DNA of 64,000 bases from Lingula anatina (lineage: Eukaryota > Animalia > Brachiopoda): NCBI GenBank assembly GCA_051362555.1, contig CM120642.1:8618001-8682000 (forward strand). Reading direction: 5' to 3'. The position numbers were made by a program, and so were the translations under genes. Shown here one piece after another: positions 8,533-64,000 of the stretch (its first letter is position 1; each line of letters begins with the position of its first letter). The notes beneath the pieces are model-generated. The model was not told the DNA's origin. It did not search any database and saw only the letters and a program-made list of their open reading frames with translations.

Positions 8533-11500
8533 ATGAAGATCACCAGTATTAAAGTATACAAGGTGGACCTACCGTTGAAAGAGGGGGCGTATAAATGGTC
8601 GGCAGGAAAGAGTGTGGAGACATTCGACAGCTCGGTTGTTCAGATTGACACGGATGCTGGCATCTCGGGATTTGGGGAGGTACATTCACTTGGGAAGTGG
8701 TCTACATTGAGTGTGATAACTGATGTGATAAATTAAAACCTGGACTTGCTTCACATAGATATAAAGTGCCTGGGCTTCTTTTGCAGGACAGTAAAATTTG
8801 CAAAGTAGTTAAGTCCCCCAAGATCGATTTTGTGATAAAGGCCCTTGAGTCCCTTTGGTCTTTTATACCATAGTTTGCTGCGTTTCACTTGCATACTTGA
8901 ATGTTGAATATTTTAAACCACTCATCGAACCCTATGTTATCAGAGTCAAGGGGTTGAACTCCCAAGACGAAAGAACGTACAGTTCATTGACAACAATATT
9001 GACATTTTTCTCATTCACACACAGTACACTTAAAATAATATGATAACCGGGTAACTACATACATTGGCTTTTATTTGTCCCAAATGTGCTAATGCAATAT
9101 AGCACAGGTGCTGAGCTCACTTATGCCCCGATTTGGTGAGCCTTTCAATTCACACTAAAATTGGCCGATATAAGCGTGAGACCCGGTGCAAAGCGAAGAT
9201 AAATCCCCGAAATTTCTGCAAAAGTGTTGAAATAATTACGCTCTATGTACGTACCCGTTATTGAACCAGAAAAGTACAGTTGTTATCGTGACAAGTCTCT
9301 GTCTTCATTTTGAGGGTGAGTGTAAAACTAGAATTCTTGAAATTTCAAATCTTAATTTTAAAATTAGTGTGTATTTGAATCAAATTGTTTGAAATTACAG
9401 GTGTGCCCCCTGGGCCCTTATTACCTTCCATCCTACGCCAGGGGTGTGAGGACGGGAATTCAAGAACTGGGACCCCACCTCATCGGACGAAATCCTCTTG
9501 AAATCGGTAACAATCAAACCTCCCTATGTACATGTACATATTTACATGAAAGTTTAGCGAACTTCCACAAGTCATTAAATTGACCTTCTCTTTAATAAAC
9601 TTCCCCAAAACACAGGGGGTATATTTCAAATATTATAAATGTTTAGTGAGATAATCTTATAGATAACAGGAATACTGCATATATTCGACAAAGACTTTTT
9701 TATATACATTGCAGAGATAAAAAGGAATAAAAAGAAGTGAATTTTAATTCAGGGGCACTGAACACCGCAATGGACTACCACTTAAAGGGGCATCCTTACG
9801 TGAAGTCACCCATAGACATGGCGTGTTGGGACATCCTTGGCAAGGTCACCAAGCAGTCTGTTTGTACCCTGTTAGGGGGACGCTACGGGGAGACGGTTGA
9901 TCTGTACAGAGCAATTAGTCAGCTACCCCCAGAACTGATGAAAGAGAACGTTCTTCAGTATAAGAAGGAAGGGTATAAAAAGTTTCAGGTATATTTTGGC
10001 ATTGCATGTCGCTTAATATTTTTGGTTGGTTATTTAAGACATCTCTATGGTCTCAAATAGTTAGCTGGGCTCTGTTAAACCGAGAAAGAATCCATATTGT
10101 AAGGTAATCAGGCCTACATGCTTTTTGTGAACCGGCAGTATGCAGTATTCTGCATATGTTTTTTTTTTCGCTGCACATTTCTACTGCGCCCAAATTTTAC
10201 ATTACTCAGATTCCCCCGTCGGCCTTTTTCAAAGTCGTTAAGCGATTCAAACCTTTTCGTATTTGCCATATTGCAATATTGTAGAAGCTTTCTAAAAACG
10301 ATTAACAAGGATTCGCTTTTATGTAATAATAGTGCTAAATTCACCAGCGATGAGACATAACTGCGACAAATGGTTTTCAACGTGCAGCTTTTGATCTTCC
10401 TCAATTTAATAACCCAACATCCAGACTTGACAGCACTCTTTAAAAATATACAGGGGGCCGCAAAGAAATATTATTATTATTATTATTATTATTTCATTCA
10501 TTTATGTCTTATTTATCTAATTCTATTGGCATGAGCTGAAGTTTATATGAGCATTACCTAGCTTGACGTTCTCGAAGCAGTATCTCTAACAATTTTTCCC
10601 GTCCCAAAGTTATAGGGATTTTTCTGCATAGCCATACTTATGCCGTCATTTGTGTTCGTTTCCCAGCTAAAGGTGGGTGGCAATCCTGACGAGGACATCG
10701 CCAGAATTCGTACCATTCGCAAAGCTCTGGATCCCGGTGACGTTCTGGTCGCAGATGCCAATACCGGGTGGTTACCACACGAGGCTATTCGTATAGCAAA
10801 CGCCGTTCAAGACCTGGACGTCTACATCGAACAGCCGTGCCTGTCGTATGATGAATGCATGCACGTGCGACAGCACTGCAGCAAGCCATTTGTTCTGGAC
10901 GAGAACATAGATGACATCGATTCCTTGGTTCGTGCGCATGTTGACAGAGCTGCTGACGTTGTGAATTTGAAAATTAGTAAATTGGGAGGGCTAACGAAAG
11001 CAAAGCAGGTATTATATTCACTTGGAATAAATATTTTATTCTATCGATGTCTGAAAAATGTTTATCACTTTAAAATTTGTTTAATTATTCCTTATAGATG
11101 TCTTGATTAATTTTTTTAAATCTTATTCTATAATTTGTTTATGTTTTTGTTCTAATTTTAGTATTTCCTTATTTTAAAAGTTAGAGCTCTTACATACTTG
11201 GTTTTGTGTGTATGTACCAGTATGTGTGCGTGTTATATTCAATATAGTCCCGTGGTTTTAGGCTCGTGACCTTTGTGTGACCTTTGGCCTAGCAATGACC
11301 TTGGAGGACACTTGGGGCAGCGACATTGTGACAGCAGCTATTGCACACCTGGCGCATAGTACACCGGAAAAGTACCGCTTTACAACAACTGATTTTAACA
11401 GCTACAACACAGTAGGGTTCTAAACTCTATAAAGTTTTTCTTTTATTGAATTTGTCATTTAGTTTAAGGGTGTATACAAAGTGACCAACAATTTCATAGA

Positions 11501-29900: not shown

Positions 29901-32900
29901 TTCCTACTGCTGATTGGAACACTTCATCAGTGACTGCAATTTATTTCTAGACAGGCTAATGAAATTGATAACTCTGGTGCATCTTTTCTTTTTATTATTT
30001 TCAGAAATTTTAAGAATTGGGTGATAGATCCTTCGGAGCCGCTGTATTACAAGTGGTTGGCAATCATCTCCCTATCCATTCTATACAACATAGTATTTAT
30101 TATAGCCAGGGCGGTGTTTTGGGAGCTTCAAGAAAACTACGTGCCCCTGTGGCTGACGCTAGACTACCTCAGCGATGCTGTGTACATACTTGATATGGTG
30201 ATACATTTCAGAACAGGTATTTATATTTTGTGGCAGCAGGGTTAAATTTGATGTTAGCTTGATCAATCGTTGCTTTCTGAACTGTGACAGATCCGTATAG
30301 TACACAGCGGAGTGGTCCACACCCCCTTATCACCCCCCCCCCCCAAAAAAAAAATAATAATAATAAGGAAAAAAACAGCATAACGAGCCAAAGGAGAAAA
30401 AGTTTTCCTTACCCTTGCTTAACTTAATATAGTGGCATTGCCCTTGTCTGTTGTTTTACATTTCATCCTCCTGATCCCCACCCCACCCCTTAGCGAAATC
30501 CCGGGTCCACTAACTTAGAGCCCCTATATAATCATATTCGTCGTAGCAAAAAGAGCTAGTATTAACTGCAGAAAAGCCAGTATTTGTTGACGAGATTGGC
30601 AGCAGAGTTTTGGGAAAACCGTTAAAGGATAATGTTGATTACGCCTACTGCCCCCAATGTTTTGTCGACGGTTGTAAGAGTTTGACATTTTTATCCCAGG
30701 AAAAAAACAGAAAACAGTATGTAAATACCACGCTTACATTGATTTAGTTTACCAGGGCTGGATTTTAGGTAAATTTATAATTGATTGCCTTTAAAAGAGC
30801 TTGTGCTGATTTGAAATAGGATAAGCCGCATGCCCACATCATGCATGTAGATCGGCACACGTCATAAGTGAGACTTCACATGCTCGCAAATGCAAGCAAA
30901 AACGTGCAAGCAAACTGATATAAAACGTGGTTTGGGGGTTTTGGGTGTGAGGGGGCTGAAAGATTTTATTGACCTTTAAGCAATTGTTACTTTCGTACAG
31001 TACCATTGTTTCATAAGTAAAAAAAATTGAATCTTTAATTAAATTGGTTTGTATTTTGAATTGATTTAATGATAATGTTATAAAATGGGAGTCTTACACT
31101 GATGCTCATAAGTTAAGCAACACTTTCTTATTTCTCGAATTTCTCAGCAACCAAAATTTTTATTGAGGCAAAATTTGTACAGTAGCTAGATATTTCTTTT
31201 GTTTTTACTTTGACTTACTGGACCGTGACATTAGAGTACTATTTACTGTTGGACACGATAGAATATGCAATGGGGGTGCCACTTGCGAAAAACACAGTTT
31301 GGCCATGCCATGAGGAGCTTCCAGTTTCAACTTTGGCTAGTTTCATGGGCACAATTTGTTATTTTGGACCAACCAATGGTTAGAAGAGGACTCAACGAGG
31401 TAATCAGATGGCAAATAATGGGAGGTCATCGTGCTGGGGTGCCAAAGAGACAGATTGCAAGGCAACAAAAAAGCAGCACCAAGTCAAGTGTCCAAGCTGG
31501 TAGCAAAATGGCGCCAAACTCGTTATGTATTGGACAAGCCTCTTTCTGGTAGACCAATATTGACCGACGCAAGAGATGAAGATATCTGGTTCGATTATGC
31601 CACCAGGACCAGTTCATATCAGCCAAACAATGAAAAATTGCCACCGTACGTCATTCAAGGGAGGTGCCCTGGTCAACAATACAGAGACGAAATACCATTG
31701 GGGTGCATACAATCACACATTCAAGCAAATCCAGAAAGAAAAACCATTTTGGTGCAGGACAATGCGCCCATCCAGAAAGCATGGTCCGTGCAAGACGCGC
31801 TGCAACAGCGCGGTATCCCACATTTGGATTGGCTTGCATATTTATCAATTCTCAATGTAATAGAACATGCTTAGGATATGATTGACAGGGCAGTAAATGA
31901 GAGACAAACTCCAGTTAGAAACATTAGAGAGGTCCAGCATGCAGTAACTGAGGAAGGGAACCGGCTCCCAAAGCAAGATTGGCAGAATTTGGTGGCAAGT
32001 TGCAGGAGACAATGTGAAGCTGTTGTTCAAAACCAGGGAAAGCACACCCGATATTTATTGCATAATAGACGATTAATCATCTATTATCTACAGTCTTCTT
32101 TTATTAAAACTAATTCTTAAATGATCGAACTTTAATTTTTCATAATAAGCTGTTTTAATCAGCACGTACTTTTTGCTGTGTGAGCATACTTTTTTGACAC
32201 ATGGTTTGGCATATTTTAGTACCGTTTGGTTAATAAAGTTATTTTGATTATTACAGTAAGCTGTGCGGTGTATTTCTTTAACCGAAATATTCAACTTGAA
32301 TAAGTTATTTATAAAATATGAAAGAAATATGCATAATTCCACCAACAAATGAAATAATGATCATGATAGAAGAAACTTCTGAAAAAATCGGGGTGTTGCT
32401 TAACTTATGAGCATCAGTGTATGTCTAGACAAGCGTGCATTTCTATTGCTTGTCTCTGTTGCTATTTTCTGTACAAAACCCCCTGTGGAATGAACATTTT
32501 GATTGAAAAGCGAATACTCAAAGAACAATTATATGATGATAACGCATTTTTCCTGTTTACTGATCCAAAATCTTTCTCTGTTTCCAGGTTATCTTGAACA
32601 GGGGCTTTTGGTTCGAGACCCTGCAAAATTACGTCTGAACTACGTGAGGACATGGGGGTTCAAATTCGACGTGGTCAGCATACTGCCCACCGATATATTC
32701 TACTTATTCACCTCCATTCACGCTACGTGGCTTCGATTCAATAGATTACTCAGGTTCTACCGCATGAAAGAGTTTTTCGATCGCACGGAAACAAGGACGA
32801 ATTTCCCGAACCTTTTTAGAATTCTGAACCTTGTTCTGTATATTCTTATCATTATCCATTGGAATGCCAACGTCTATTTCTTGATCAGTATGGTGATAGG

Positions 32901-33993
32901 TTTTGGATCCGATGAATGGGTTTACCCTAATATTACCATACCTAAATTTCAACCACTATCACGAAAATATGTGTATAGTTTTTACTGGTCGACCCTGACT
33001 CTAACCACAATTGGAGAAACACCCAAGCCCGAGAGAGACAGTGAATATATTTTTGTTGTTGTGGATTTTCTGATTGGAGTCTTAATTTTTGCCACCATCG
33101 TGGGTAATGTAGGAAGCATGATAACAAACATGAACGCCAGTCGTGCCGAGTTTCAGCAGAAGATGGACGGTGTTAAACAGTATATGGAGTTCAGAAAGGT
33201 CGGTAAAGAATTGGAAAGGAGAGTCATAAAATGGTTCGATTATCTTTGGACCAACAAGCAATCGTTGAACGAAGAAGCAATATTATCGACTCTTCCTGAA
33301 AAACTGAAGGCAGAGATTGCCATACATGTCCACCTAGAAACTCTTAAGCAAGTAAGTATTTTTCAGGACTGTGAACCGGGCCTCTTGGCACAGTTGGTTC
33401 TCAAGTTGAAACTGCAAGTCTTTAGCCCCGGGGATTATATATGTCGTAAAGGGGACATAGGCAGGGAAATGTACATAGTCAAAAAGGGAAAGCTACACGT
33501 TGTCGGCGACGACAGCCAAACAATTTACGCCACTTTAAGCGACGGCAGCGTTTTCGGGGAGGTCAGTATCCTGAACATTGCTGGGAACAAGACGGGCAAT
33601 AGAAGAACCGCTAACGTTCGCAGCGTTGGTTATTCGGACCTTTTTTGTTTGTCTAAAGATGACTTGTGGAACGCTTTACGAGAGTACCCAGAAGCGAAAA
33701 AAATTCTCATCGAAAGAGGACGTCAAATTTTGATGAAAGATAACCTGTTGGACGAGGAGGCTATGATTGAAGAGGAAAGAAAACAAGAAACTGTTGAAGA
33801 AAAAGTGGAAAGAGTAGACCTCGGACTTGATAACTTGCATACAAGATTTGCTCGTTTGCTAGCAGATTTTAACAGCACCCAACAGCGGCTTAAACAACGA
33901 ATTACTAAACTGGAGAAGACTCTATATGACCAAGACGGTCAGAGCCCTAACGGCAATACTGAAAGTGGAAACGAGGCCGACATGGAAGGCTAA
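26972..33993 (+). CDS. CNGA: Cyclic nucleotide-gated cation channel alpha subunit (CNGA/TAX-4-like), about 677 aa
   Basis: Exons 26972-27241, 29463-29608, 30005-30216 and 32588-33993 (2034 nt, in frame). N-terminal RPDSFLERF motif, S4 LRFNRLLR, pore [12 protein letters not shown]-linker, cNMP-binding [24 protein letters not shown], and a C-terminal leucine zipper. Confidence 0.95.
31097..32419 (+). mobile_element. Tc1-family (DD34E) DNA transposon with a decayed transposase, in a CNG channel intron
   Basis: Perfect 27-bp terminal inverted repeats CACTGATGCTCATAAGTTAAGCAACAC (31097-31123 and 32393-32419) flanked by TA. Frameshifted transposase fragments include an HTH region (RWQIMG..RAG..KRQIARQ), SGRP, and QDNAP...LNVIE with 34 residues between D and E. 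Confidence 0.92.
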
Positions 33994-35065
33994 ATAGTCG
34001 AACTGCTTTTTAAAACACTGCGTTTGTAAACGCTTGTTTTGTGCCTTCCCTCCACATTACCAATCTACCTCCTGAAAAGATAAAACATGAAGTGAGATAA
34101 ATCAAAGTTCCGTGTCTTTCTAATTTCTACTTCGCCTTTCACTATTTCTATTGAAACATTTCAAATCAGGTGGTGTATCATTACATGACAGAATGATTTT
34201 TGAGAAGGGGGTTACTCATTACATCGAAGAACTGTTTAATTTTATAATTATCATTATGTAAGAAGATAATATTACATAACCGGCTGCTGACACGTTATAG
34301 GTAAAAGGAGTTCCAGTGATAAACTTAATATCATATGACAATTTTTCCAACGTCTCAATACATTTTCAAATAATAAATTTAATAACGCCATAGGAAGTGA
34401 TGTTATGTCACAAACAGGATATTCAAGCGAGGAATTTTACAGTTTGTCTGAACTTCATTCATGTATAAAAGAGCACAATCAAGCTTCATTTAATGATGGC
34501 TAGAAAGTGGCATAATATTACAATGAGTACAAAGAAATGGCATATTTCACTTGCGTATATATCCATACAGACTATTAGACTTGAAGCCAATATTGTAAAA
34601 AAGTAATCAATCACATTGTCACTTTATATGCAATAAAATCATTTTGGAATAAAAACAGAAAAGTCAATGTTTTCTCACAAAAAGAAAAATAGATGTAAAA
34701 TCGCTCGCCGTGCCGAACAAAGCAATATTTTCCTAACAATTTAATGTAAACCTTGGCGATTTAGTAATAAATGTACATGTTGTATCAAAGCCCGTAGCAA
34801 TCGCCATCACCGTCATTTACTTAAGGTTGTTCGGAATGAATATAACATGCATATTAATCACAGTCGCCATAATATACGTATATATTTCAAGAGAGTGAAC
34901 ATTTCATACGAATAACTGATATCTTATCCAAATGCATATGATGGATAAAAGTATATTAATCACAAAATCAATTTCGAAGTGGTTACACATGATAAAAACA
35001 CCACGAGGGATTTTTCAGCTTTGGCCAATCGGGGAAAAAAGATAAAGGCTCTTGTTAATATGTTA

Positions 35066-36046
35066 TCAATTGTGGTGCAGCAATTTTGTTTTCACAACAG
35101 CAGCCAAAGTAAGCATACCAAAGGTATAATCAACGTTCTCCCCAGTTTTAGCGGATACGAAAAAACAAGGGTGTTCCAATTCCTGTTCAATTTCCTCTCT
35201 CGAAGGCAATTTTGGATCCCACTGGAGATCCGTCTTATTACCTATAAATGCTATGAAGGCGTCTTCTCCTGTACGTTTTGATTTGAAGTCGGCATACCAC
35301 CTTTTTGCACCAGCATATGTACACGCATTAGACACGTCAAACACAATGGCACAGCATGCGCTGTCTTTATAGTACACTTTTGTCATATTTCCAAATCTTT
35401 CTTGACCTGCAATGTCCCAGGATTGGAGCTGCACAATGCCTATGGTTGTCCTAACAGTGCTTAAAGTAAAATCAACTCCAATTGTAGGCTTATACATTGC
35501 CTTGTATGATTTCTTGACCCATCTACCATTAAGACAGGTTTTGCCTATGGTTGGATCACCAATCAGTAATAGTTTAAACAGAAGGTTTGGTGCAGCTGAT
35601 CCATGTTCGTAGGAGGGGCATTTTTTGGTGACCTCTATAGGGGCATGGGGCGACTGAAGCATGCGCATAATTTCTTTATTTTGCATAATGGCATGTTCCA
35701 GCTGTAGAAACAAACCCTGGTTATTCGCACGAATTTCCTCCAAGGCTTCTCTATTTTCTTTCACGTCGCTCTGTATCAGAAATTGTCGCTCCTCGTCCTT
35801 AAGTCTTAGAACCTTCAACTTTTTCTTAGATCGCAGGGCGAGGAAAATGGCAACAAGTGTACTGGGAATGGTAAACAAAGAAGAGGCAAGAGACACATAC
35901 GCTTGCACGTTCTTTATATTGTCCGGCAACACGGGGAGGACATTTGACCAGCACAGTATCCACAAGACGGTTATCACAATCACAAGAACAATTCCAAAAC
36001 ATTCCAATCCAACCGCACGAGCAGCTTTGCAACAAAAACCTGCCAT
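35066..36046 (-). CDS. Intronless Rab32/38-type small GTPase with two N-terminal hydrophobic helices and a coiled-coil; no C-terminal prenylation motif
   Basis: Single 326-aa ORF. G1 GDPTIGKT, G2 YKPTIGVDF, G3 WDIAGQERFGNMTKVYYK (Rab32/38 signature), G4 NKTD, G5 SAK. The protein ends KTKLLHHN. Confidence 0.85.
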   Translation of the reverse strand: MAGFCCKAARAVGLECFGIVLVIVITVLWILCWSNVLPVLPDNIKNVQAYVSLASSLFTIPSTLVAIFLALRSKKKLKVLRLKDEERQFLIQSDVKENREALEEIRANNQGLFLQLEHAIMQNKEIMRMLQSPHAPIEVTKKCPSYEHGSAAPNLLFKLLLIGDPTIGKTCLNGRWVKKSYKAMYKPTIGVDFTLSTVRTTIGIVQLQSWDIAGQERFGNMTKVYYKDSACCAIVFDVSNACTYAGAKRWYADFKSKRTGEDAFIAFIGNKTDLQWDPKLPSREEIEQELEHPCFFVSAKTGENVDYTFGMLTLAAVVKTKLLHHN

Positions 36047-37325
36047 TTCTTTTTCTGGATCCTACTTTATGCCCTCAGACTTATGTGGTCTTAATTTTGC
36101 CAGAAGTATTGGGCACAAGATCTACTACAAGTAGCTAAAAACGACTGAAGACAGGAATCCACAGACAGAGAATATCATTACGTCATATTCCCTACTCTAT
36201 GTAAGGGATAGCTTTAACGTGACTACCAGAAATCCGCCATGAATCAGCTGATGAGTCGGTGAAGGCAAGCAAATACATACAGCATGAAGGTTTGCTTCTA
36301 AAGAGTTTCGAACTTCAGTTTGTTAGCATCAAAAGTGACACGACACACAACTCGCAACACATGCTCTCATTTCCAGGCATGATCTAAAAGAAAAACAAAA
36401 TAGAAATTGTAATTGGATCATAACACTGATGATAACTTTGCCATATTTATCGTTTTCATTAAGCATCAACAGTTACTTCCCGTTTGGATTGGCTTCTACG
36501 AGAGGTTGGAGGGGGGGAGGGGTAGTCCTGGAACGGCCGGGCGTTTAACTTTGGAAAAGAAAATATATTCAAACTGTATAGGCCTAATAATAATGATAAA
36601 TTAATAAATAAACGGTAACGCCTTTTCAATAAAAATGCAACTTTAAGCGGGTTTCACTTATACAACTTTTCGTCTCTTTCTACATAGCCTACTTAGCCTA
36701 TCATCTGTATATATAATCTGTGGCCTTTCTCACCTACCTTTGTACACACTCGTGATTTCCGTTCTTTGTGTAAAAACAATTAAACAGTCTGGATATACAT
36801 GACTTAACCAAAATGATAATTACCTTTAAACATGGAATAGTGTTTTAGTTATAAAAATTCTTGATCTAACCCTGCCAAATCAAGACTGCCCCCCCCCCAG
36901 GGTTCGGTCCTACACGTCTAGAGACCCACTCCCAGGCATTAAACAAACTGCAAAAAGACCCAAAGCCCCATGTCTAGGTTGCTAAATAATTTATAAAACT
37001 AGTCAACCACCTTCAAAATTGTAAAATGAATATCCGCTAACTGAATGGTATAATGTCATAGGCCTACCTACTCGATCGACCCACTGAAAAGTAGTAGTAG
37101 GCCTACTGTAGGCCTACACAGAATTTACAGAAGCCATTTACTGAACCGTATCGTCAAGTTTGGGATAATATTTTACTGTGATCTACATGCCAAAGAGGAT
37201 TTTTGTCTATCGTTTGACAAAATACATGCTCACCCTAAAAGCCTGCATCTTAGAATCGGGGAAACAATAGCAACTGGGAAATCCCAACATGTGACCAGGT
37301 GACCTGTGACCTGCAGGCAGTGGTA

Positions 37326-37333
37326 TGACGTCA
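37326..37333. promoter_or_regulatory. Palindromic CRE/ATF site immediately upstream of the desulfurase-TtcA start
   Basis: TGACGTCA ends 10 nt before the ATG at 37343. Confidence 0.4.
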
Positions 37334-37342
37334 TTATCCAAT

Positions 37343-40300
37343 ATGTCAGCCTCCATGGCAAGTCAAGTCGGCATGAGCGACGACAAGAGAAATTCTCAAA
37401 ATCTACCTCACGCAGACAGAAAATTTTACAATATACCTATCCAACAAATAGACAATGGGCAAAAGAAGATGGGAGTAAGACAAAAGGCGGATTCTGCGGA
37501 ACTGCTTAGATATATAGATGGAAATGTGATCGGACACGATAAAATTTTCTCAGGACCATATGGGAATAGACAAGGTACGTATTGAAAACCGTCATTTTTC
37601 TCTCTTTTCAGTTTCTTTTGTCTCATTTGGGTTTCACTGCTCTTGATTTCATTAGTAAGTGCTTTTGAACGGTTTTTTTTTGTTAAAACGGAATGATTGT
37701 AAAGTCTGAAAGCAAATTCTTTGACCAATGAACAGACAGCGACTAAATTAATTTTAATTCATTTTTAAAATATTCCAGTTGTTTACTGTGACTATACAGC
37801 ATCAGGCAGGTACGTATTTATGTTTTCAAAAGGACACCTTATTTCTTCACTCTGCTGAAGTTGAGTGAATTATTTCTGCATTTTTAAGTTTTTCTCTCTT
37901 TGTGAAAATACAACTTTTGAGTAAGTATGAATTTTTGAAGGACAAAACTTTGAACATAAGCAGAATCGATTTTATCTATAAAGGATATGAAGATCTGGAC
38001 AACAAAAGCGCATGTGCTGTCCCATTGTTTTATGTCCCTATAGTTGGTGAAAATGCAAACAAGATGTAATGTCTATTACACGCACCAATTGAATACGGTA
38101 TCTGTGATGTTATTTGTTTATAAAGATTTTATTTAATAGTTGTGTATTTGCCATTGTTTTTTTTTTTTAGGTCCCTGAGTTTTATTGAGGACTATATAAA
38201 AGAACAGGTGCTCCCAGACTATGGGAATACACACACTACCACTACAGTAACCTCTCTACAGTCAACTCTCTTCAGACATGAAGCTAGGTACAGTACTGCT
38301 ATTGTCTATAGATATGGACTGTAAAATGTATAATTTTAATGACAGCAATGTCTGTTTTACAAAGAGGCCATTTGCTGTGAGCAGTTGGAATATTTTACAA
38401 TTAAACAAGACCATGTCTAAATGTGGCTGATGGCTCAAAAAGATTACATATAGCCAAAGGTTTATAATTTTTCAGTCAACTTGCTTATTTTAATGTATTG
38501 CATATTTTAATTTTTCTAGAGATATCATCAGGAATTCTGTAAATGCCAGTGAACATGATGCAGTGATATTTTCAGGCAGTGGCTGTACTGCAGCTGTACA
38601 TAAACTGATGCATGCTCTTCATCTGACTGAACCACCGGTGAGTAGGGTCACAGGGGCTGTTTTAAATGCAAATGAATCTCATCTCAAAAATTGATCTCAG
38701 CTTTAAAGCCTTATCTTTTGCTTCTATTTTGGCACAAAACAAGTCTGTTGTGGTCCAATTAAATTATATCATATTGGGCTATTTTGATAACAAAAAGGAA
38801 ATGGCTATTGTTTAAGACTATAACTTTATTAATAATAATGGGACTACAATTTATCCAAAACTAAAGAAGACCAAATTTTTGCACACATAAAGTTGTTTTG
38901 TGAAACTGCCCCCCCCCCCCATCCCTGTGTATGCAAGCCAATGATTATAGCATAGTTCAAATGAGATAAGCATACCACCCCTATTAGAGGAGTACTGACC
39001 AGTTCTCTTCTTCTGCTTCTCAGAAAGAATTTTTTGGGGTGTCTCAGACTGCTTAAGTTGTGTAGCTGACTACATACTGTTGACTTTCCAGTATAATATT
39101 CTAAAAGCGATTTGTGAAAAAATTATCAAAATGGGTTGATGGCAACCCTAAATGAGAACTTGTTGACAAGGAGTGTAAACTGTTTTCAAGCCTATCAAGT
39201 GTTGATTTGCTCTTGGGGCTGAGGTGCGTAAATGACCATATAAAACAAGAAAGAATCGTAAGCCTTTGCTTAAACTGATATTTCACTACTGTGGCAGTCA
39301 TCTTGTGACAAAAACCACAGTATGTGCTTGTTATTTGCCAATGTTGAAATATGATGATAATTATCAATCAAGAGAACAATTTTTGCTTTTTCTTTCAAAG
39401 AACTGAAATATACAAAAGCAAAAATTTGCTTCCAGGTGGTTTTTGTAGGGCCATATGAGCATCACTCCAATCTTCTTCCATGGAGAGAGAAAGGGGCTCA
39501 GGTAAGGTTTTCTGAAAGTCTTGTTATAACCATGGGTTGACCTGATCAAGTTAAATTTTGGCAAGTTGCAGAATATAACATTGTATTTTTTTCAACAAAA
39601 CATGGAATATTTTACTGTTTTTGACCATATATTCAGTTTTTTCATTCAATAGAATTACACAGATATTTAGATAAAGAAATAATCCAAGAGGGAGTTCAGT
39701 TTGATAACACTTACATAAGTGTACATGTGTGTATACCATACAAGAGTGTGCACGTCATGCTCACATACATATTTGGTGAAAATTATATTTTTTCCCATTT
39801 TGAATTATGCCTGTCACTTAATATGAACTTTTTTCTGCTTTCTATTTTTTAAAGTAAGTTGGCACTTTTTAGTAGGTTGACTCTGTTATAGTCTCACATT
39901 AGCTAGCTCAGAAAGTTTTTAAAAATGATGATTTTTTTTTCAAAGGTGATAAGAATACCTGAAACTGATACAGGAGAGTTAGACCTGCAAAACCTTGAGC
40001 AGGAACTTCAGGTACTATGTCAAGAAGAGAAATGTGAATATATTACAAAAATTACAGTATATGAATAAAAAATGATGGCTTAATGGACTAATATTTAATG
40101 TAAAATCTTGATCTTAAAAATCGCAGACATATATCTTGACAGGTTTATCGTTTTGCATAATCATTTGATCTTTTAATTTCAAGTCTTGGCAAAACAGTGG
40201 CAGACAGCTGATTGGTTGTTTCTCTGCTGCGTCAAACGTAACGGGCATCATATCTGATGTTGACATGATAAGTGTCATCTTGCACAAATATGGTGCTTTA

Positions 40301-43300: not shown

Positions 43301-46300
43301 TAAGAAGATTTTCATGCATGGTAAAATATTTGCATTGATTAAATAAGACATTAAATTGGTATTTATCGTCTTTTGTATACTCTTTCAGGAGGCTGGACAG
43401 AGTCCATTTGAGACGATATCGGGAATATTCTGAGAGAGAAATTTTAAGGTTTGATGGTATTCTCTTAAAATATAGAACCTAATCTCAAGATACACAGAAT
43501 TCATCTGTTTTGCAAAAACTAACAGTATGGGATTCACTATCTGGTCTGAATGAATGGAAAGAAGGTCATATGAAGGCCCTCCATTTATGTTCTAGTACTT
43601 TGAAAATGTATACATTTTTGATATGTAAGCATTTTGAATAATTCCCATATATCTTTTAATATTTTGTTGTATTTGTTTTATGAATATGAAACGTTTTGGA
43701 TGCAAATTTATTATGATTTATTTTTATTATACATTTTTTCCAAATAATTTGCCTTTCAAACTGTTTCAGACCTGGGTTTTCTCGTATTAATCTACCCTAT
43801 TTCGTGAATGATGAGTGTGTGGAGTTTGTGCTCGATGCAGTGAAGATGGTAGCTGAACATGGCTGGAAACTTTTACCACAGGTATTATCTGATACTTCCT
43901 GTATGATTATCTTATTTTGAAACAGCGTAATGAGGTGAATTCAGTGGATTGAGAAGGTGAAGGTGGTTAGAACACACATTCTCTGCATTTTCTTAGTGTT
44001 GAAAATTTTTGTTTTCAGGCATTATTCTGTTGTTTTAACTGTTAGTACTTGAAATAAATACATCATTCTGTTCTTAAACATGTTATAAAAATATTAGAAT
44101 TTTTATATACTGTTCTGTTGGCAGTTTTGTAATATGTTAAAATATTTGGGAATGGTCACATTTAAGTTTTCTTTATTTTAGTCAATTGTGTCCAAGTTGA
44201 CATTCCTTATTTTAGTGACTATTAATTTCTACCACCAAAGGGACATAGGATAATATATCTCTTTATTTAAATTAGTACACATTCAACCCAGAAACTGGAG
44301 AGTGGAGGCACAAACAACATCAGGTATATATCATTTTGTTTTTGTTTTGGTAAGAAGTCCATATTACGCACACTTTATAATCATTAATATAAATTTTATA
44401 GATCAACATTAAATGGCTTTAAAGGCAATTTAAGGATAAGGGTAACCAAATTATCTTACAGGTTTTCAAAGACAGAAAATGGCTTGGTTACATCATTTAT
44501 GAAACTGGCAAAATGACGTACAGAGAACCTCAGTTTCAGAGCAAAGGTCCATTGCCATCAGATTTACAGGTAAGCGTTGTGTGGGTGTTAAAATTTTTGG
44601 TTAACCTTAGAGAAGGGAGCTGGGGGAAGTTGAACTGTATTAGAATAAAAATGTTCTTCAGTCATTTAAGAGGGGCCTTTGTTTCAGAAATGATTTAAGA
44701 GTGAAGTTGGTCTAAACTTATATTTAGTCTACCTCATTTCACGATAGGTCTTAATTAATATGCAGCTATTTATTAACTTTGGTTGAAAATGGCATGAGAT
44801 TTTTAATTTATAAAACGGGCACAATATTTCATTAAGGTGATCTACTACTATTTTATATTGGGTCAAACACAACAAAACCTTTTAGTTTAAGTGTTCAGAC
44901 CAGTTTTACTCTTAGACTATAATTCTTTTGAGATGGGAAAAGAATCAGTTTTGGGTAGTTAAAAAGACACCTAAATCCATGCAACCATCCAGCCACTGCA
45001 GAATACAACATTTTATTACTAAACATTAAAAATAATAACTTTTTTCTAAAAGGAAGGTTTATATGATACATGCATTCTGTTTTAATTTTTATTTTGCAGG
45101 AATGCCTCATGCAAGCAGAAAATATATTCGATAATGCTGGCAAGGTTAGAATAAATCTTGCAGACCAGACATTGATGTTTGATGAGCAGACATCATCCAT
45201 AAGATGGTTTGTACTACCCAGTGAGATTCTTAATAAAAATGATACACCTATATCTCCTCCATTTGTGCCAAAGAATTACTCTGAATATGTAGGGAATTTG
45301 ATTAACAAGCAAGGTTTTGACTCTTTGTCAAAGATATCAGAAGATGGAAGTGAAGTTGCTGTTGATGGGAAATTGAAAAAGACTGAGAATGGTTTCATTG
45401 CAGCAGATGTTGTAGAACGTAAGAACTTCCCTGTTGGTGCTTGCTGTGAATATGAAAATAAATGGAAGTCAAGCATGGAAAATGGCAGCAATTTTTCTGA
45501 GGGAATGGCCGTTTTTCTAAACACTGGATTTGTTGAAAGTTGCCCATCAGGTGCAACAGCTGAATCAGATATGGATCAGAAAAACAGTCATAAAACTTCT
45601 AAGCAGACAACATTAAATTTTGAAGTTTGTGCCAATGACTCATCCTCTTTCAATAAGCTATCAAAAAATAGGACATCAAGTTGCCTCCATGAATCTGAAG
45701 AGGCTAATAAGGAAGTGACTGGTGTCATGAAAAGCGGTACTCTTCATTTTTCTCATGCTGAACCAAGTGTAGGTGGAGCCAGTGTGGGTGGTAATGACAC
45801 ATCATCTTGGTCAACTGCTCAGAAATCTCCACCAGAGGGTGACAGTGTTACTGAGAGTTCCAAAAAGAGCCAGTCAAACGAGGACAGAAATATAGACAAA
45901 GCAGACAACACTTTGCTTCAGTTGAAAGAATTAAATGGGGATGGTGCAATTGTTGCTAAAGACACATTTGTGGTGTCAAAAGAAATCCAGAGCACTAGTG
46001 TCAAAAGTTCTGGACAAGACAAGAACGATGACAAGTCGGTGAATACTGGCACACAGCAGAGAGCAGCTAAATCTAAGGGGCCATGCTGGCATGCACCACC
46101 CAAGAATATCTTCAAACCAACAGTTGAGGTATGTATGATGAGGTTAGGAAAATAATGTGTCAGCATTAGGCCATGAATACCTGTTTGAGTTTTCAGGTAA
46201 TTCTATGGAGATTCTCTTTGGCATGGAGAATGACCTTATTAATGATTTTCATTAGAGGCTCTTCTTAACAAATTTAAAAATCGATTAGGAAAACAAAATG

Positions 46301-58713: not shown

Positions 58714-61700
58714 TCATACATATTCTTCCATGTCCTTCTTAACATCTAAAGGCACCAGTTTCACTTCAGATCTACCCTCGCTGTCCGGCAAGGCCGCAAT
58801 GTCCTGAAACACACCCACTAACTTTTCAAAGCTTGGGCCCCAGTTTAACAAATAATCCCAATTAAATAGACCAGTGGGGCTTTTTGTGGGGCGTGGTAAA
58901 GTCTCGTCCTCTGAAACCAGTAGCGTACTCAGTGATCCTCTAACCGAGTCCGACCCATCATACGTGAACGTCCTTCCATTTGAATCTTGTGGGCTATCCT
59001 CATTTTCATTCTCAGCTTCGCTGAGTTTTGGAAACTGGTCAAACTCCGGCCTGTTTCTCTCATTCTCATACTCAAACTCTGAACAAGTAAAAGAATCATT
59101 ACTACTGTCATCAGAGGTGGACTCTGGGGGTTCCAGCAGTCCACTGTGCTCTAGTGTGTTTATATTATTAGGTCGCCCTCTGCCCTCTGTTGTAGAGGAC
59201 ACAGCGTCTATAGTACTGGTAGGACTGACATGTTGTCTTGCATTGAGTCTCTCTATCTCCTCCACTGTCAGTCCCATGGGGGGTCGACTGGCCACCCCAC
59301 CAGGTTGCTGCATACGGCTGTGTGGACGAGGGGGGATATTGGCTGGACTCCTGACCACCTCCCCCTGTCCACTGCTCTGGTCAGAGTCCACCCTGACTTC
59401 CTGTATGGGACTGGCCACTCGATTGCCCAGTTGCATGCCCAGTGGGCTGACACGCATGTCTCTGATTGGACTAGTTCTAGATAACTGGTTCATGGGGCTG
59501 TGGCGAGCCACCATGGGGTTGATAGGACTTTGGCGTAATAATGGATTGTTGACTGTGAGCGGACTCTGGCGTGGCATGGGCGTGCTCTGCATTTTCATTG
59601 CGTTAGGACTATCCCTAGCCTGCTGCTGCTGCTGCTGGTGCATCATCACACTGGGACTCTGCCTTGGCAAGCTCATGTTTATTTGATTCATGGGACTGTC
59701 CCTAGCAGTCCTATTAAGTATATGATTGGGACTATGTCTATGACTGTGTTTATGATATGTAGGTACATGATGATTATTTCTCTGATGGTGGGGACGTTTT
59801 CCGTCCCTGTATCTCCTATAATGTGTGATAACATCAATGTCAGAAGGAGCTATACTACTGGCATTTTCAATGTCATAATGTTCAGGAAGAGCCTCCTCCG
59901 GTATTCCAAATGCATCTCCATTTTCTATGATCACAGTATCATCATCTTGATGGTTTTGAGAAGGCACTGTGGAAGTCTGCCTCCCAAGAATGTCTGGTGG
60001 CTGCAGTCCACCGATATGATCTGAGATTTCTCTTTCCTGGAAAGACTTTGTAGCCAACTCCTCTGCTATGTGGTTACGGATTATTGTTTCCTCTGGGACT
60101 TCTCCTGTTTCCGTGTAGCCAGAATCCTGCGTCCTGTTGCTGTCATTTGCCGCTTTGTTAACTATGAATACGCTGTCCCCATTTTGTTTAGTCTGCTCGG
60201 CAGAGTTTTGCTTCTTTTGCTGCATCGTGCGTCTTGCTCGGAAAACTATGAAGGTGATCAGTAGACCAAGGATTAACACTGCCAAGAACACAATGACAAT
60301 GACGACTCCTATACTGATTGGTGAAGGTTCTGGTGTTGCTTTGACAGCGCCACATTGCTCTGAGCAATCGCCACCACTGACACAGGCATTGCAGCCAATA
60401 ACTCCTGTTGAGCAGCCATTGCTGGTATTGCCTGATACTTGGACATCAAATCTCTCTGTGGCTCCCTGGAATGGTTGTGCTTCCCCATTAAGGAGAAAGT
60501 CGGACAAACAGCCAGCAAAACCTGGAAATAATTAGAACAAAAAAATTTAAGTTTTTGGAATATCAATACACTTCAACTAATCTTTTAAATCCTTTCTTGG
60601 AATCTAAAAATATCACATATCATTTGACTAAATATTCATTGTGTATAGGAATACCTGAACAATATTGCGGGTAATTCAATTTTTTTTTTGTTTCTCATAC
60701 GAAAAAAAGTTGGTTCAACAATGAGTAAAATATATACTTTCACCAAAAAGCAACATACCAGGCTCACTTTTGTCTGGGAATTTTCCACCTAGTTTTAAAG
60801 CAGTAACATCAAGTCCCAGGAAATCATGAACAGCAGGGAATTCTCCGTCTACTGGTGACTCGTCATTTAACTTCAACTGGACTTTGTTTCCTAAAAACCA
60901 AGGGGTAATGTGATCAACAGTCATCATCACAGGTTCACTCTGGCATTTGTGTAGTTACCAATATTTTTCAAGGCAATTTTATAACAGTTTACAAGCATTT
61001 GTTGTAAATGGGCCAATACAAACCACTGAAAAAAACATTTGTTATGTCTACTGCAAATTTGCACCAGGTTCAACAACTCTCCTTTTGAAAATGCACTCTT
61101 TGAAAAACAATCCAAAATACCTTGTACTGAAAGAGAGATGTTGTGCCACACATTATTATCCATCTTCTTGTCAGATACAGTGACTTTCTCATTTGTTCCT
61201 CCCTCCTGGAACTGATACACGAGCTTTCCTTCCTCCACTCCAAGGAGAGTGTATCCACTGGGACTTGTGGATTGAAACAGAGGCCCATCAGCGGAGGTGC
61301 CAAATGTGACTGACATGCTGTGTGAACCTGTTCCAACAGCCCTCTTTCTTCTTTTGGTGGCAGCACTGAGCAAGGACTGCCTCCTGTAGCTTTCCTTGGG
61401 GATGAATTCCACTTTGGCATTAGGTCCAAATGTGAATGACTTCAACTCTGCAAGTAGAATGTGAATTGTTTCATCTGTCAGATAATAAATACTATTCCTG
61501 CAATTGTCCATCATCTTCAAAATTCACAAACTCTACTTGAAAATCACATATTTTTATGATAAAATTCTTTTACAAATACATAACACAAATTTTATATTTA
61601 ATAATAATAAAAAAAGACTTACCCAATTCACATCTATCTCCCATAAACCCAGATCTGCAGGTGCAAGACATTCCAAACCATTCATCTTTACATGTTCCCC

Positions 61701-64000
61701 CATTCTCACATACATTGGACGTGCATGTGCCAGTGTTTTCCCGTGGGCACGTATTTGTCACGCCGACGCTTGCACGCAGTTTCTCCTTTCCAGTTAGAAG
61801 GTTGTAACCATCCGCGACTGCAATGCGCAGGCATCCCACGAAGTCATAAGTCTGCACTTCTCTTCGCTGAAGGAGGAGGTCAAAGTCCCTAACACCACCC
61901 AGACTGAGGTTACCAGAGGCCACGTCAAGAGTCCTGAAAATAATATGTATTTTTTTTAATTACCATTCATTATATTATTAAACTGAAAAAAGAGATGGCA
62001 GATCATTTATTTATTTATTTATTATTTACTTCTTAAAACAGCACTTTCAATAATAATATAATTTGTCAACCATTTGTGAATATTTCAAATAATACAGTCT
62101 ACATCAGCCATGGCACATCAATTTCATTCCAAATTCATTACGCAAGTCTAGATAAATTTGCCTTATGTAGCATTATAACATATGCCTTATGTAGTATTAT
62201 AACATATCCAAATAACTGATCAATATTATAGCAACCTGTATTTTGGTAAGTTATTTCACTGCACAATTCTATTACTTACTGGAAGCCATCATGGGACCCT
62301 GTGGCATAACAATTGCTGTCCCCAATATTACATTGTCTGCAAACTGGGTCACACAGTTGCACTTTCAAAGTACCCGCCTGAAGAATAAGAAAAATATGTT
62401 ACATTTGTTACATGCTTATCTAAAACTTTGTTCTACATACAGCTGTAGAAATAACTATTTTTTTTCAATTTGATGAAAATGTCAACAATAGTCACGAGAA
62501 TATTAAATTTCCAGGTCAGAAGTTCCAACAAGTAGCCAGTACATAATATTCTTTCATCACACTTTGCAAAAACCTAGTTTGAGTCATAAGCTAAATAAAC
62601 ATTACAATTTCTCCTTCAACATGTATCCCATCTTACCTCTTGAATTCTGCTGACTGTGACCTTGAACCATTTCCCATTGGACACATACTGACCAACTGTC
62701 AACTTAGTACTGTCTGTCTCACCAAGGTTGAACGAGAACACAACTCTGCCAGCCACAATCTCTAGGGCCAGGAAGTCAGTGGAACCTGGGTTGTACAGCA
62801 GCAGGGCATTTTGCTGTAGTGTGGCAAACTCTAGTACAATGTTATTCTGATCTCTCTGCAGTGGTGACTGGAATTCCATGTAGGAGAGGCTGTGGAAACC
62901 TCTCCCTGTTAACTCACATCTGAAGGACCCCACAGTGTTCCTGCACTCACTTCCCGGGCATGGGTTAGACAGGCACTCGTTTACGTCATCACCACAAGTT
63001 GGGCCTGTGTATCCTGCGACACACGTGCATGTTGGTGTACCAGCAATGTCCAGGCAGGTGCCTCCATGTAAACAGACATTATTCCCACAGCTCTGACCAA
63101 TGTCCAGTTCACAATTGGTTCCAGTAAAACCAGCTGGACACTGGCAGTGGTGTGTATGCTGCACAGCTGGGGCAGTAAGGATGAAGGACAGACTGGCCAT
63201 TTGATTATAGGTGGAAAAGACAACAGGGTCATCAGAACAAACACCATTGTTTTGGCATGGGTTACTCTGACAGGGACTCACATTGATTGTGGCAATGATA
63301 ACACCACTGCCCTGTTGAATACTGTTCCTGTTGGACTGGAGAGTGCTTTCCAGAGTTGCTGCTGTTCTGTACTGCCCAGAGCTCTGCTGAATAGCCAGGA
63401 ACAAGTCAAGGTTAGGCCCTCTCTGTAGCAAGTTGTGTAGGACTATAGAATCCCCACTGGTCAAATACTGGGCCAGGGTGCTCTCAAATCTGGTTCTAAA
63501 CGTTCGCAGGAATGTCTCTTGGGTTAAGCCCTGCAGTCTGACCACCAGTGTGTTCTCTAGGGTTGTGTTGTCCACTGTCCTGAATTTGACCAAAGTGGCT
63601 GAAGTCACTCCACTGGAACGGCCATCACTTGAGCTTATGTTCAAAGTGAAATCCTTGGGGCTTTGGACCTGGTTTGCTTGAAGCTGGCAGCTGGAACCAG
63701 AGAAGCTAAACATTGACCTTTCTCCCTGCAGGATTGAGCAGGTGTAGCTTCCAGAAATATCGGGGTCAGTTGGGGTCACATCTGCCACAAGGCCTCCTGG
63801 GAAGTTTCCTTGATAGGCAAACACAGAAACGGTCAGAGGACGTGGAGTTGGAGGGTTGTCATTCAAATCATTCACCAGGACATGCAAAGTTAAAGTGGAC
63901 GTCTGCTGGGGTGAGCCCCCATCTGTGACCTTGATAAGCAGGTCAAGGTTACTGATCTGCTCGCGGTCTAGCCTTGTCGTTGTCCTGAGTGCCCCATTGC
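58714..64000 (-). CDS. FAT4: Fat/Fat4-type protocadherin, 3' part (last cadherin repeats, EGF repeats, two laminin-G domains, transmembrane helix, cytoplasmic tail); continues beyond the window
   Basis: Exons on the minus strand: >64000-62637, 62377-62280, 61933-61623, 61447-61121, 60890-60759, 60521-58714. Cadherin motifs LDRE and DLNDNPP, EGF motif CxCxxGFTGxxC, Fat4/Ft tail motifs PEHYDIENASSIAPSDID, DSFTCSEFEYE, FNWDYLLNWGP, and C-terminal EEYV. Confidence 0.93.

Follow-up and report, generated by a model that had tools for sequence, protein, structure and literature searches.

The 64 kb of Lingula anatina DNA analysed here (the window) carry on the minus strand (36046-35066) a Rab-type gene whose single exon encodes 326 amino acids, in which a predicted membrane segment and a putative coiled-coil stretch precede a Rab GTPase domain. 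The gene is transcribed and functional, not a pseudogene, and it is one of a family whose switch face diversifies fast; the existence of a family rather than a single gene and the behaviour of that face are points that the original prediction lacked. It is highly probable that the product works as a membrane-anchored Rab-type GTPase. The full explanation favoured here, to which we give a probability of about 0.62, is that of a transcribed GTPase derived from the Rab32/38/29 group, anchored by a hydrophobic hairpin in place of a prenyl tail, with a switch face under diversifying selection.

Architecture and transcription of the gene

The layout of membrane segment, coiled coil and Rab GTPase in one exon (35066-36046) emerges from the ORF list, Pfam, RNA cover and a gap-free contig of DNA run X8, and the claim that the ORF is intronless is borne out: one frame is open throughout, with no RNA splice joint. 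M1 is the first in-frame ATG, lies six codons downstream of an in-frame stop and has G at -3 and +4; it is conserved, and the next Met is M121, so that no support was found for the downstream start envisaged earlier. Two hydrophobic stretches are present as claimed, at positions slightly shifted from the proposed 17-37 and 50-70. Helix 1 (aa 14-32; 35951-36007), also a helix in the AlphaFold2 model, is a predicted transmembrane segment or signal anchor whose best 19-residue window reaches a Kyte-Doolittle value of 2.75 and a strong crude Hessa sum of -2.2; helix 2 (aa 53-71; 35834-35890), which includes P61, is a marginal predicted transmembrane segment (1.99 and +1.2, respectively, in its best 19-residue window). 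In the rest of the protein, no 19-residue window exceeds a Kyte-Doolittle value of 1.12. The 15 residues following helix 2 hold seven K/R and the inter-helix loop holds one; the basic cluster noticed originally (aa 72-83; 35798-35833) does lie directly past helix 2 and is a predicted cytosolic flank. It leads into a long heptad helix (aa 84-131; 35654-35797), a predicted coiled-coil stalk with L102, I105, N109, L112, L116, A119, N123, I126 and L130 in the a/d positions; this pattern and the AlphaFold2 helix agree with the heptad-rich segment described earlier. In the AlphaFold2 model, helices lie at 14-39, 47-75 and 84-131 (modest confidence, pLDDT about 42-76), and the G domain occupies 156-325, its final helix reaching the C-terminus; a second model, built from four sequences, was poorer (pLDDT 56).

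The Pfam Ras family matches residues 158-313 (E 4.5e-35), the predicted G-domain fold resembles Rabs, and the G1 (GDPTIGKT), G2 (T188), G3 (WDIAGQE), G4 (NKTD) and G5 (SAK) motifs are in place, with no Cys among the final 20 residues. Pfam, motifs, AlphaFold2 and the Cys scan are at one with the proposal of a Rab domain with G1-G5 that ends at helix 5 without tail cysteines. No EF-hand family was found in the protein by Pfam at E up to 1. By difference counts, aa 156-231 of the G domain (its front; 35354-35581), which comprise the P-loop, switch I, the interswitch and switch II, change fast between versions of the gene; the back (aa 232-325; 35072-35353), with G4, G5 and helix 5 and without a hypervariable tail, is strongly conserved. 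The stop codon (35066-35068) is TGA in the window and TAA in the second version found in DNA run X1, as read from a contig loose end, and the RefSeq relative of the protein ends at the identical residue.

Four raw RNA runs from three studies were mapped to 33600-38000, with 6-25% of each run read. RNA lies over the ORF in all four at a depth of about 1-4, and the lack of expression that the original prediction had named as fatal did not appear. X11 reads fill every bin from 35070 to 36392, X17 reads those from 34776 to 36392 and X12 reads those from 35364 to 36098; X14 cover is patchy. Read mates in X11 and X12 point the other way from those over the spliced plus-strand neighbour, and the RNA is therefore sense for the Rab-type gene. 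Depth in X11, X17 and partly X14 outlines, at bin resolution, a transcribed 5' leader (36047-36392), and nine short ATG frames lie upstream of the ORF, up to 36400; low cover beyond the stop (34776-35069 in X17, 34923-35069 in X14) marks a probable 3' UTR (34776-35065) of uncertain strand. This evidence consists of overlapping reads, no single molecule spanning start to stop. A spliced 3' exon supplying a CC or CxC motif, another concern raised at the outset, was not found: no splice joint is listed within the ORF, where a listing needs three reads at a depth of about 1-4, and no exon candidate with either motif occurs within 4 kb downstream. Loose ends in the RNA are confined to one in the leader and to cross-mapping reads at 35382-35419, which continue as canonical Rab32, raise the depth of that bin and reveal that a canonical Rab32 transcript exists in Lingula RNA. 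This 38-base stretch matches canonical Rab32 apart from three listed differences, which raised the thought of gene conversion; all three being third positions in a conserved motif, conversion seems an unneeded explanation.

Among the neighbouring loci, the large terminal exon of a cyclic-nucleotide-gated channel (32533-33993, plus strand; Ion_trans, cNMP_binding, CLZ) converges tail to tail with the Rab-type gene, about 1.07 kb apart, and a spliced plus-strand gene (37343-37811; start near 37340, intron about 37573-37778) stands head to head with it. The first exon of the latter has no Pfam match, and the second resembles the start of a class V aminotransferase or cysteine desulfurase-like protein; its RNA has at least 22 listed differences from the window in about 205 bases. 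The window also holds an exon of an enolase-superfamily (MR_MLE_C) enzyme (10640-11110, plus strand), a 361-codon Ser/Lys-rich open frame (45070-46155, plus strand) with no Pfam match, probably a large internal exon, and the 3' part of a Fat-like cadherin (58714-63713, minus strand; EGF, Laminin G, cadherin cytoplasmic motif).

A Lingula family and its probable relation to Rab32

Relatives of matching architecture do exist, a point on which the original prediction had proposed a search for orthologues: three further proteins carry the full layout, down to 39% identity to the window protein (P0001). P0002 (L. anatina XP_013389542.1, 326 aa) is identical at 290/326 positions (89%), without gaps, and is the sole full-length match among the 40 matches listed from 1127 candidates; P0043 (L. 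anatina XP_013418664-7, 346 aa) and P0044 (348 aa, from a 791 kb contig) share 48% and 39% of their residues with the window protein, respectively, and have the whole layout. A search with residues 1-153 against 1.84 billion representatives gave four matches, namely these three and P0045, a repetitive fimbrial-type protein that was discarded as a family member; P0024 (79% coverage), which has no hydrophobic leader match and clusters with archaeal-type Rabs, was discarded as well. A word search with the N-terminal 150 residues returned P0002 only (1/208 candidates), an Atlas search with them gave no usable match, and a family profile run over 7996 candidates added no member, P0043 itself being unlisted; as such searches miss relatives at 45-50% identity, they set no limit to the size of the family. 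Viral and prokaryotic genome collections hold no close relative of P0044, and the four metagenome loci that match it do so in the G domain only. The named members are all from Lingula, where RefSeq labels them SEC4 and Rab-7a.

In all four members, a pair of hydrophobic helices precedes a basic cluster, the segment predicted to form a coiled coil and the Rab domain, and the final 20 residues contain no Cys. Kyte-Doolittle values range over 2.17-2.75 for helix 1 and 1.72-2.17 for helix 2, where the crude Hessa sum is +0.5 to +4.6 and three of the four proteins have a proline; each protein has 6-7 K/R in the 15 residues past helix 2 and 1-2 in the loop. The a/d positions of the stalk are hydrophobic or Asn, N123 being kept throughout. 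GKT, the G2 Thr, DxxG and NKxD are conserved in every member, and G5 reads SAK, SAK, STK and SAR; the catalytic Gln (Q215) is kept in two, replaced by His in P0043 and by Val in P0044, and P0043 lacks the TIGVDF motif. Taken alone, the G domains of the family form a single clade (support 99/97). Because P0043 and P0044 carry the layout whole and the G domains form one clade, the layout is, on comparison of sequences, old and maintained and not a one-off fusion.

Some further features of these proteins deserve mention. Cys residues at aa 5 and 6 (window 36029-36037) and at aa 16 and 32, near helix 1, could be palmitoylated; Cys residues near helix 1 occur in the window protein, P0002 and P0044 and not in P0043. 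P0043 is represented by four RefSeq isoform accessions and has a basic 30-residue tail. P0042 is an older, 2281-aa model that joins an SPRY-containing protein to P0002 from residue 44 onward; gene prediction probably made this fusion by using a cryptic acceptor, and its first 1998 residues are absent from the 64 kb window.

Descent from the Rab32/38/29 group is likely. Among the PDB matches of the window protein, Rab29 scores best (111 bits; Rab1B and Sec4 104), the top two being Rab29/32/38 structures, and the nine best of P0044 are Rab29, 38 and 32 (89-96 bits; next 83); a profile of the four family sequences scores Sec4, Rab29 and Ypt7 alike. WDIAGQE is described as marking Rabs of lysosome-related organelles, the Rab32 family (PMC2954822); the window protein carries it, its three relatives (P0002, P0043 and P0044) have altered forms, and it is not exclusive to Rab32/38/29, since archaeal-type Rabs in the comparison set share it. 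In switch II, motif alignment puts M221 at the position of Met91 of Rab32 and K223 in place of Arg93, two residues reported for that switch (PMC7779776). Trees place the family as sister to the Rab32-motif clade and outside it, with weak support (80/70 and 88), in a set that lacks named Rab29, Rab7, Rab23 and Lingula Rab32 and leaves out P0039, P0042 and P0045, the second tree being made from 32 chosen rows; an AU test leaves a position among animal-type Rab32 proteins tenable (p 0.078). As judged from the protein itself, classical Rab membership fails on the prenylation tail. The coding sequence has no introns, as expected of a retrocopy, and the proposed origin by retroposition is plausible. 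Near the gene, no poly-A tract was seen by eye and no target-site duplication was found, the one 14-nt two-copy repeat overlapping nothing expected, and the age of the family makes both absences uninformative.

Divergent versions and selection along the gene

DNA run X1 contains 95% of the window's words and two versions of the gene, in paired contigs of equal length with depths of 55-59 and 44-46 (sum about 103), which differ at 8/119, 23/197, 50/425 and 5/118 bases (84 listed places, no gaps) and share the flank past the stop. The P0043 gene, recognised in X1 from translated loose ends, lies in one contig at a depth of about 92. Because the half-depth pair sums to near that depth, the two versions, about 9% apart, are most simply alleles; the published heterozygosity of L. 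anatina is 1.6%, as given in PMC4595640. A serious contender, if one short of even odds, is that they are recent paralogues with copy-number variation, or that one is a haplotype introgressed from a cryptic Lingula lineage, and not balanced alleles. The P0042 model places an SPRY-containing gene upstream of the RefSeq copy where the window has none, which fits paralogy; in X8, the depth is 26.6 for the Rab-type gene and 13.8 for the P0043 gene; the RNA of the neighbour's first exon differs from the window by at least a tenth of its bases, so that divergence reaches past the Rab-type gene, as introgression or cryptic lineages would have it; and the X1 sample may be pooled. Against this stand the X1 depths, the equal lengths and common flank of the paired contigs, and the single copy of the gene in the 64 kb window. 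Paralogy or introgression would leave the claim about architecture intact and weaken that about selection. As the P0043 contig has half the depth of the Rab-type gene in X8 and full depth in X1, the P0043 gene may be polymorphic too.

Allelic or not, the versions differ along the gene in an uneven manner. The window and the X8 version, which one X8 contig covers across the ORF, differ at 69/981 bases with no gaps; 40 difference rows span codons 156-326, where they yield exactly the residues of P0002, and the N-terminal counts were derived as 16 nonsynonymous changes from the protein and 10-13 synonymous ones from the total (65 further rows). With these derived counts, dN/dS for aa 1-75 is 0.17-0.19 against the gene-wide dS (p<0.001), which indicates purifying selection on the membrane segment; for aa 1-155, it is 0.34-0.46 on local counts (p 0.01-0.06; 0.002 or less against the gene-wide dS). 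The back (aa 232-326) has three nonsynonymous and ten synonymous changes (dN/dS 0.07, p 1.5e-5). The front (aa 156-231) has 22 and five, which differs from the back (p 0.001) and gives a dN/dS of 1.26 locally, not different from 1, and of 0.95-1.08 against the gene-wide dS, not above 1. As many as 19 of the 36 amino-acid differences fall within aa 156-231 (chi-square p 1.9e-5), where they surround the nucleotide-binding cores without hitting them; a position-corrected scan, with boundaries chosen post hoc, gives p 0.0015 at 76 aa, 0.03 at 30 and 0.11 at 50.

Switch regions are usually the most conserved part of a Rab. In 135 of the 136 pairs formed by 17 canonical Rab32-like proteins, chosen for their similarity to the query, the front is better conserved than the back (74% vs 48%). 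Within the family, the front is faster than the back in four of six pairs, the exceptions being P0001-P0044 and P0002-P0044, and its dN/dS on the deeper branch is 0.43-0.51. Codons 166 and 174 each have three residues across versions, and X12 RNA adds one more P-loop version. The second X1 version and X8 have 13/15 synonymous and 9/25 nonsynonymous differences in common (p 0.003), and X8-private changes in the front number 13 nonsynonymous and no synonymous (p 0.04; p 0.001-0.017 against gene-wide private synonymous changes). Inferred from totals, the second X1 version has about 39 private changes; by the same reckoning, about 18 lie within 137 bases at 35274-35410 (codons 213-258). The change in the front is best read as the mark of diversifying selection acting on the partners of the switch face, with cellular defence the most likely setting.

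Relaxed constraint offers a different account of the front, in which the protein would be a membrane-anchored scaffold with a decaying switch whose anchor, stalk and domain back do the work. The pooled front dN/dS of about 1, the loss of the catalytic Gln in P0043 (now His) and P0044 (now Val), and the loss of TIGVDF in P0043 fit this account; GKT, the G2 Thr, DxxG and NKxD are nonetheless retained in all four members, with G5 as SAK/SAK/STK/SAR, and X8-private front changes outpace the X8 synonymous rate, which makes it unlikely. Less likely still is another topology: helix 1 might be removed as a signal peptide or be the sole true span, or the two helices might wedge into the membrane surface. 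In a type I or N-out arrangement, the G domain could still face the cytosol, and in an N-in single span it would be luminal. Helix 2 is indeed marginal, with a proline in three of the four members, and AlphaFold2 confidence in the N-terminal part is modest; the loop of about 15-20 residues with 1-2 K/R and the strong basic cluster after helix 2 recur in all four members and favour the hairpin. Neutral evolution is rejected, dN/dS being well below 1 in the anchor and the domain back with no indel in the pieces listed, and of 6000 neutral simulations at the observed synonymous divergence, with indels ignored, only 56-99 kept an open frame. That the gene is a processed pseudogene, or a chimera that gained its hydrophobic leader by chance, a reading that the lack of introns and the low expression would suit, is accordingly very improbable given a layout kept down to 39% identity, purifying selection on anchor and domain back, the absence of gaps and a retained stop position.

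Proposed mode of action and comparison with known systems

As described in PMC8366711, geranylgeranyl groups at the C-terminus attach Rabs to membranes, and GDI extracts the proteins. In the Lingula protein, an N-terminal two-helix hairpin would insert with both ends cytosolic, its orientation fixed by the basic cluster past helix 2, and a coiled coil of about 48 residues, probably dimeric, would hold the G domain off the membrane. In coiled coils, an Asn/Leu pattern at the a positions suggests a parallel dimer; by its heptad pattern, the Lingula stalk may be one. From the absence of acceptor Cys and the conservation of the hydrophobic hairpin, we infer integral anchoring and, with it, membrane insertion, this topology and GDI independence: with no geranylgeranyl groups, GDI would have nothing to extract, and the protein would travel as membrane cargo controlled by its nucleotide state only. 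The site would most likely be endolysosomal or lysosome-related compartments, because the Rab32/38/29 relatives act there. The scheme presumes dimerisation, this compartment and GTP cycling, with nucleotide-binding cores kept while the partner-binding face around them changes fast for a cause that can be proposed as follows.

Rab32 is reported to work with BLOC-3 against intracellular bacteria (PMC11513930), and bacterial enzymes to target its switch I and recognise residues of switch II (PMC5752668, PMC7779776). By motif alignment, the variable positions 183, 184, 186, 187, 213, 217 and 219 of the Lingula protein flank the equivalents of the residues targeted in Rab32, and by this analogy pathogen conflict is possibly behind the divergence of the switches. 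On a bolder reading, tentative and rather doubtful, the proteins would be integral-membrane, Rab32-like immune decoys or restriction factors on the vacuole membrane, displaying a switch face to Rab-targeting microbial effectors in an arms race that keeps alleles about 9% apart within one animal. A role in gamete recognition would produce a similar pattern of switch divergence. The fastest change in the switches, together with divergent versions coexisting in one DNA sample, does resemble immune or recognition genes.

The window protein resembles Rab32, Rab38 and Rab29 in its WDIAGQERFGNMT and TIGVDF motifs, in the Met at Rab32 M91 and in its best PDB matches. Unlike them, it has a membrane and coiled-coil leader of 155 residues, Lys at the R93 position and no hypervariable tail or C-terminal Cys (present in 21/26 Rab32-motif proteins of the set); WDIAGQE is altered in its three relatives, and the domain front changes faster than the back. 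Rab29 itself is described as prenylated yet GDI-resistant (PMC9574512). Rab44, Rab45 and Rab46 likewise have a coiled coil N-terminal to the Rab domain (PMC7818423), but with EF-hands where the Lingula protein has hydrophobic helices. ARA6 and related N-acylated Rab5-type Rabs and Rabl2-6 are Rab-type domains without C-terminal geranylgeranylation (PMC5869587, PMC7818423) that, as presented there, have an N-terminal lipid or no anchor instead of membrane helices. SR-beta and Miro are transmembrane-anchored GTPases of the Ras superfamily, SR-beta being N-terminally anchored (PMC13393502) like the Lingula protein; they are, by contrast, ancient and pan-eukaryotic, Arf-related or a tandem GTPase and not Rab-derived, and Miro is C-anchored.

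Reversible prenyl anchoring and recycling by GDI underlie Rab biology, and the Lingula family would amount to a natural test of a Rab that does not cycle off the membrane. Open-licence full text in PMC and bioRxiv yielded no natural transmembrane Rab and nothing on the Lingula proteins, which supplementary Rab inventories could list. The closest precedent is Rheb-TM of the SAR clade, likewise a lineage-specific paralogue of a prenylated GTPase in which predicted transmembrane segments replace prenylation; the paper on it names N-acylated Rab5 paralogues and large Rabs among the instances of altered Rabs (PMC5869587). With that precedent for the anchor swap, and with named members all from Lingula, the reach of the finding is limited so far. 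Rheb-TM differs in being of the Ras family and in having, as described, four C-terminal segments, whereas the Lingula protein is a Rab with two N-terminal segments and a coiled-coil stalk. The exchange of prenylation for helices is thus known in Rheb; what appears new is its probable occurrence in a Rab, along with the fast-changing switch region.
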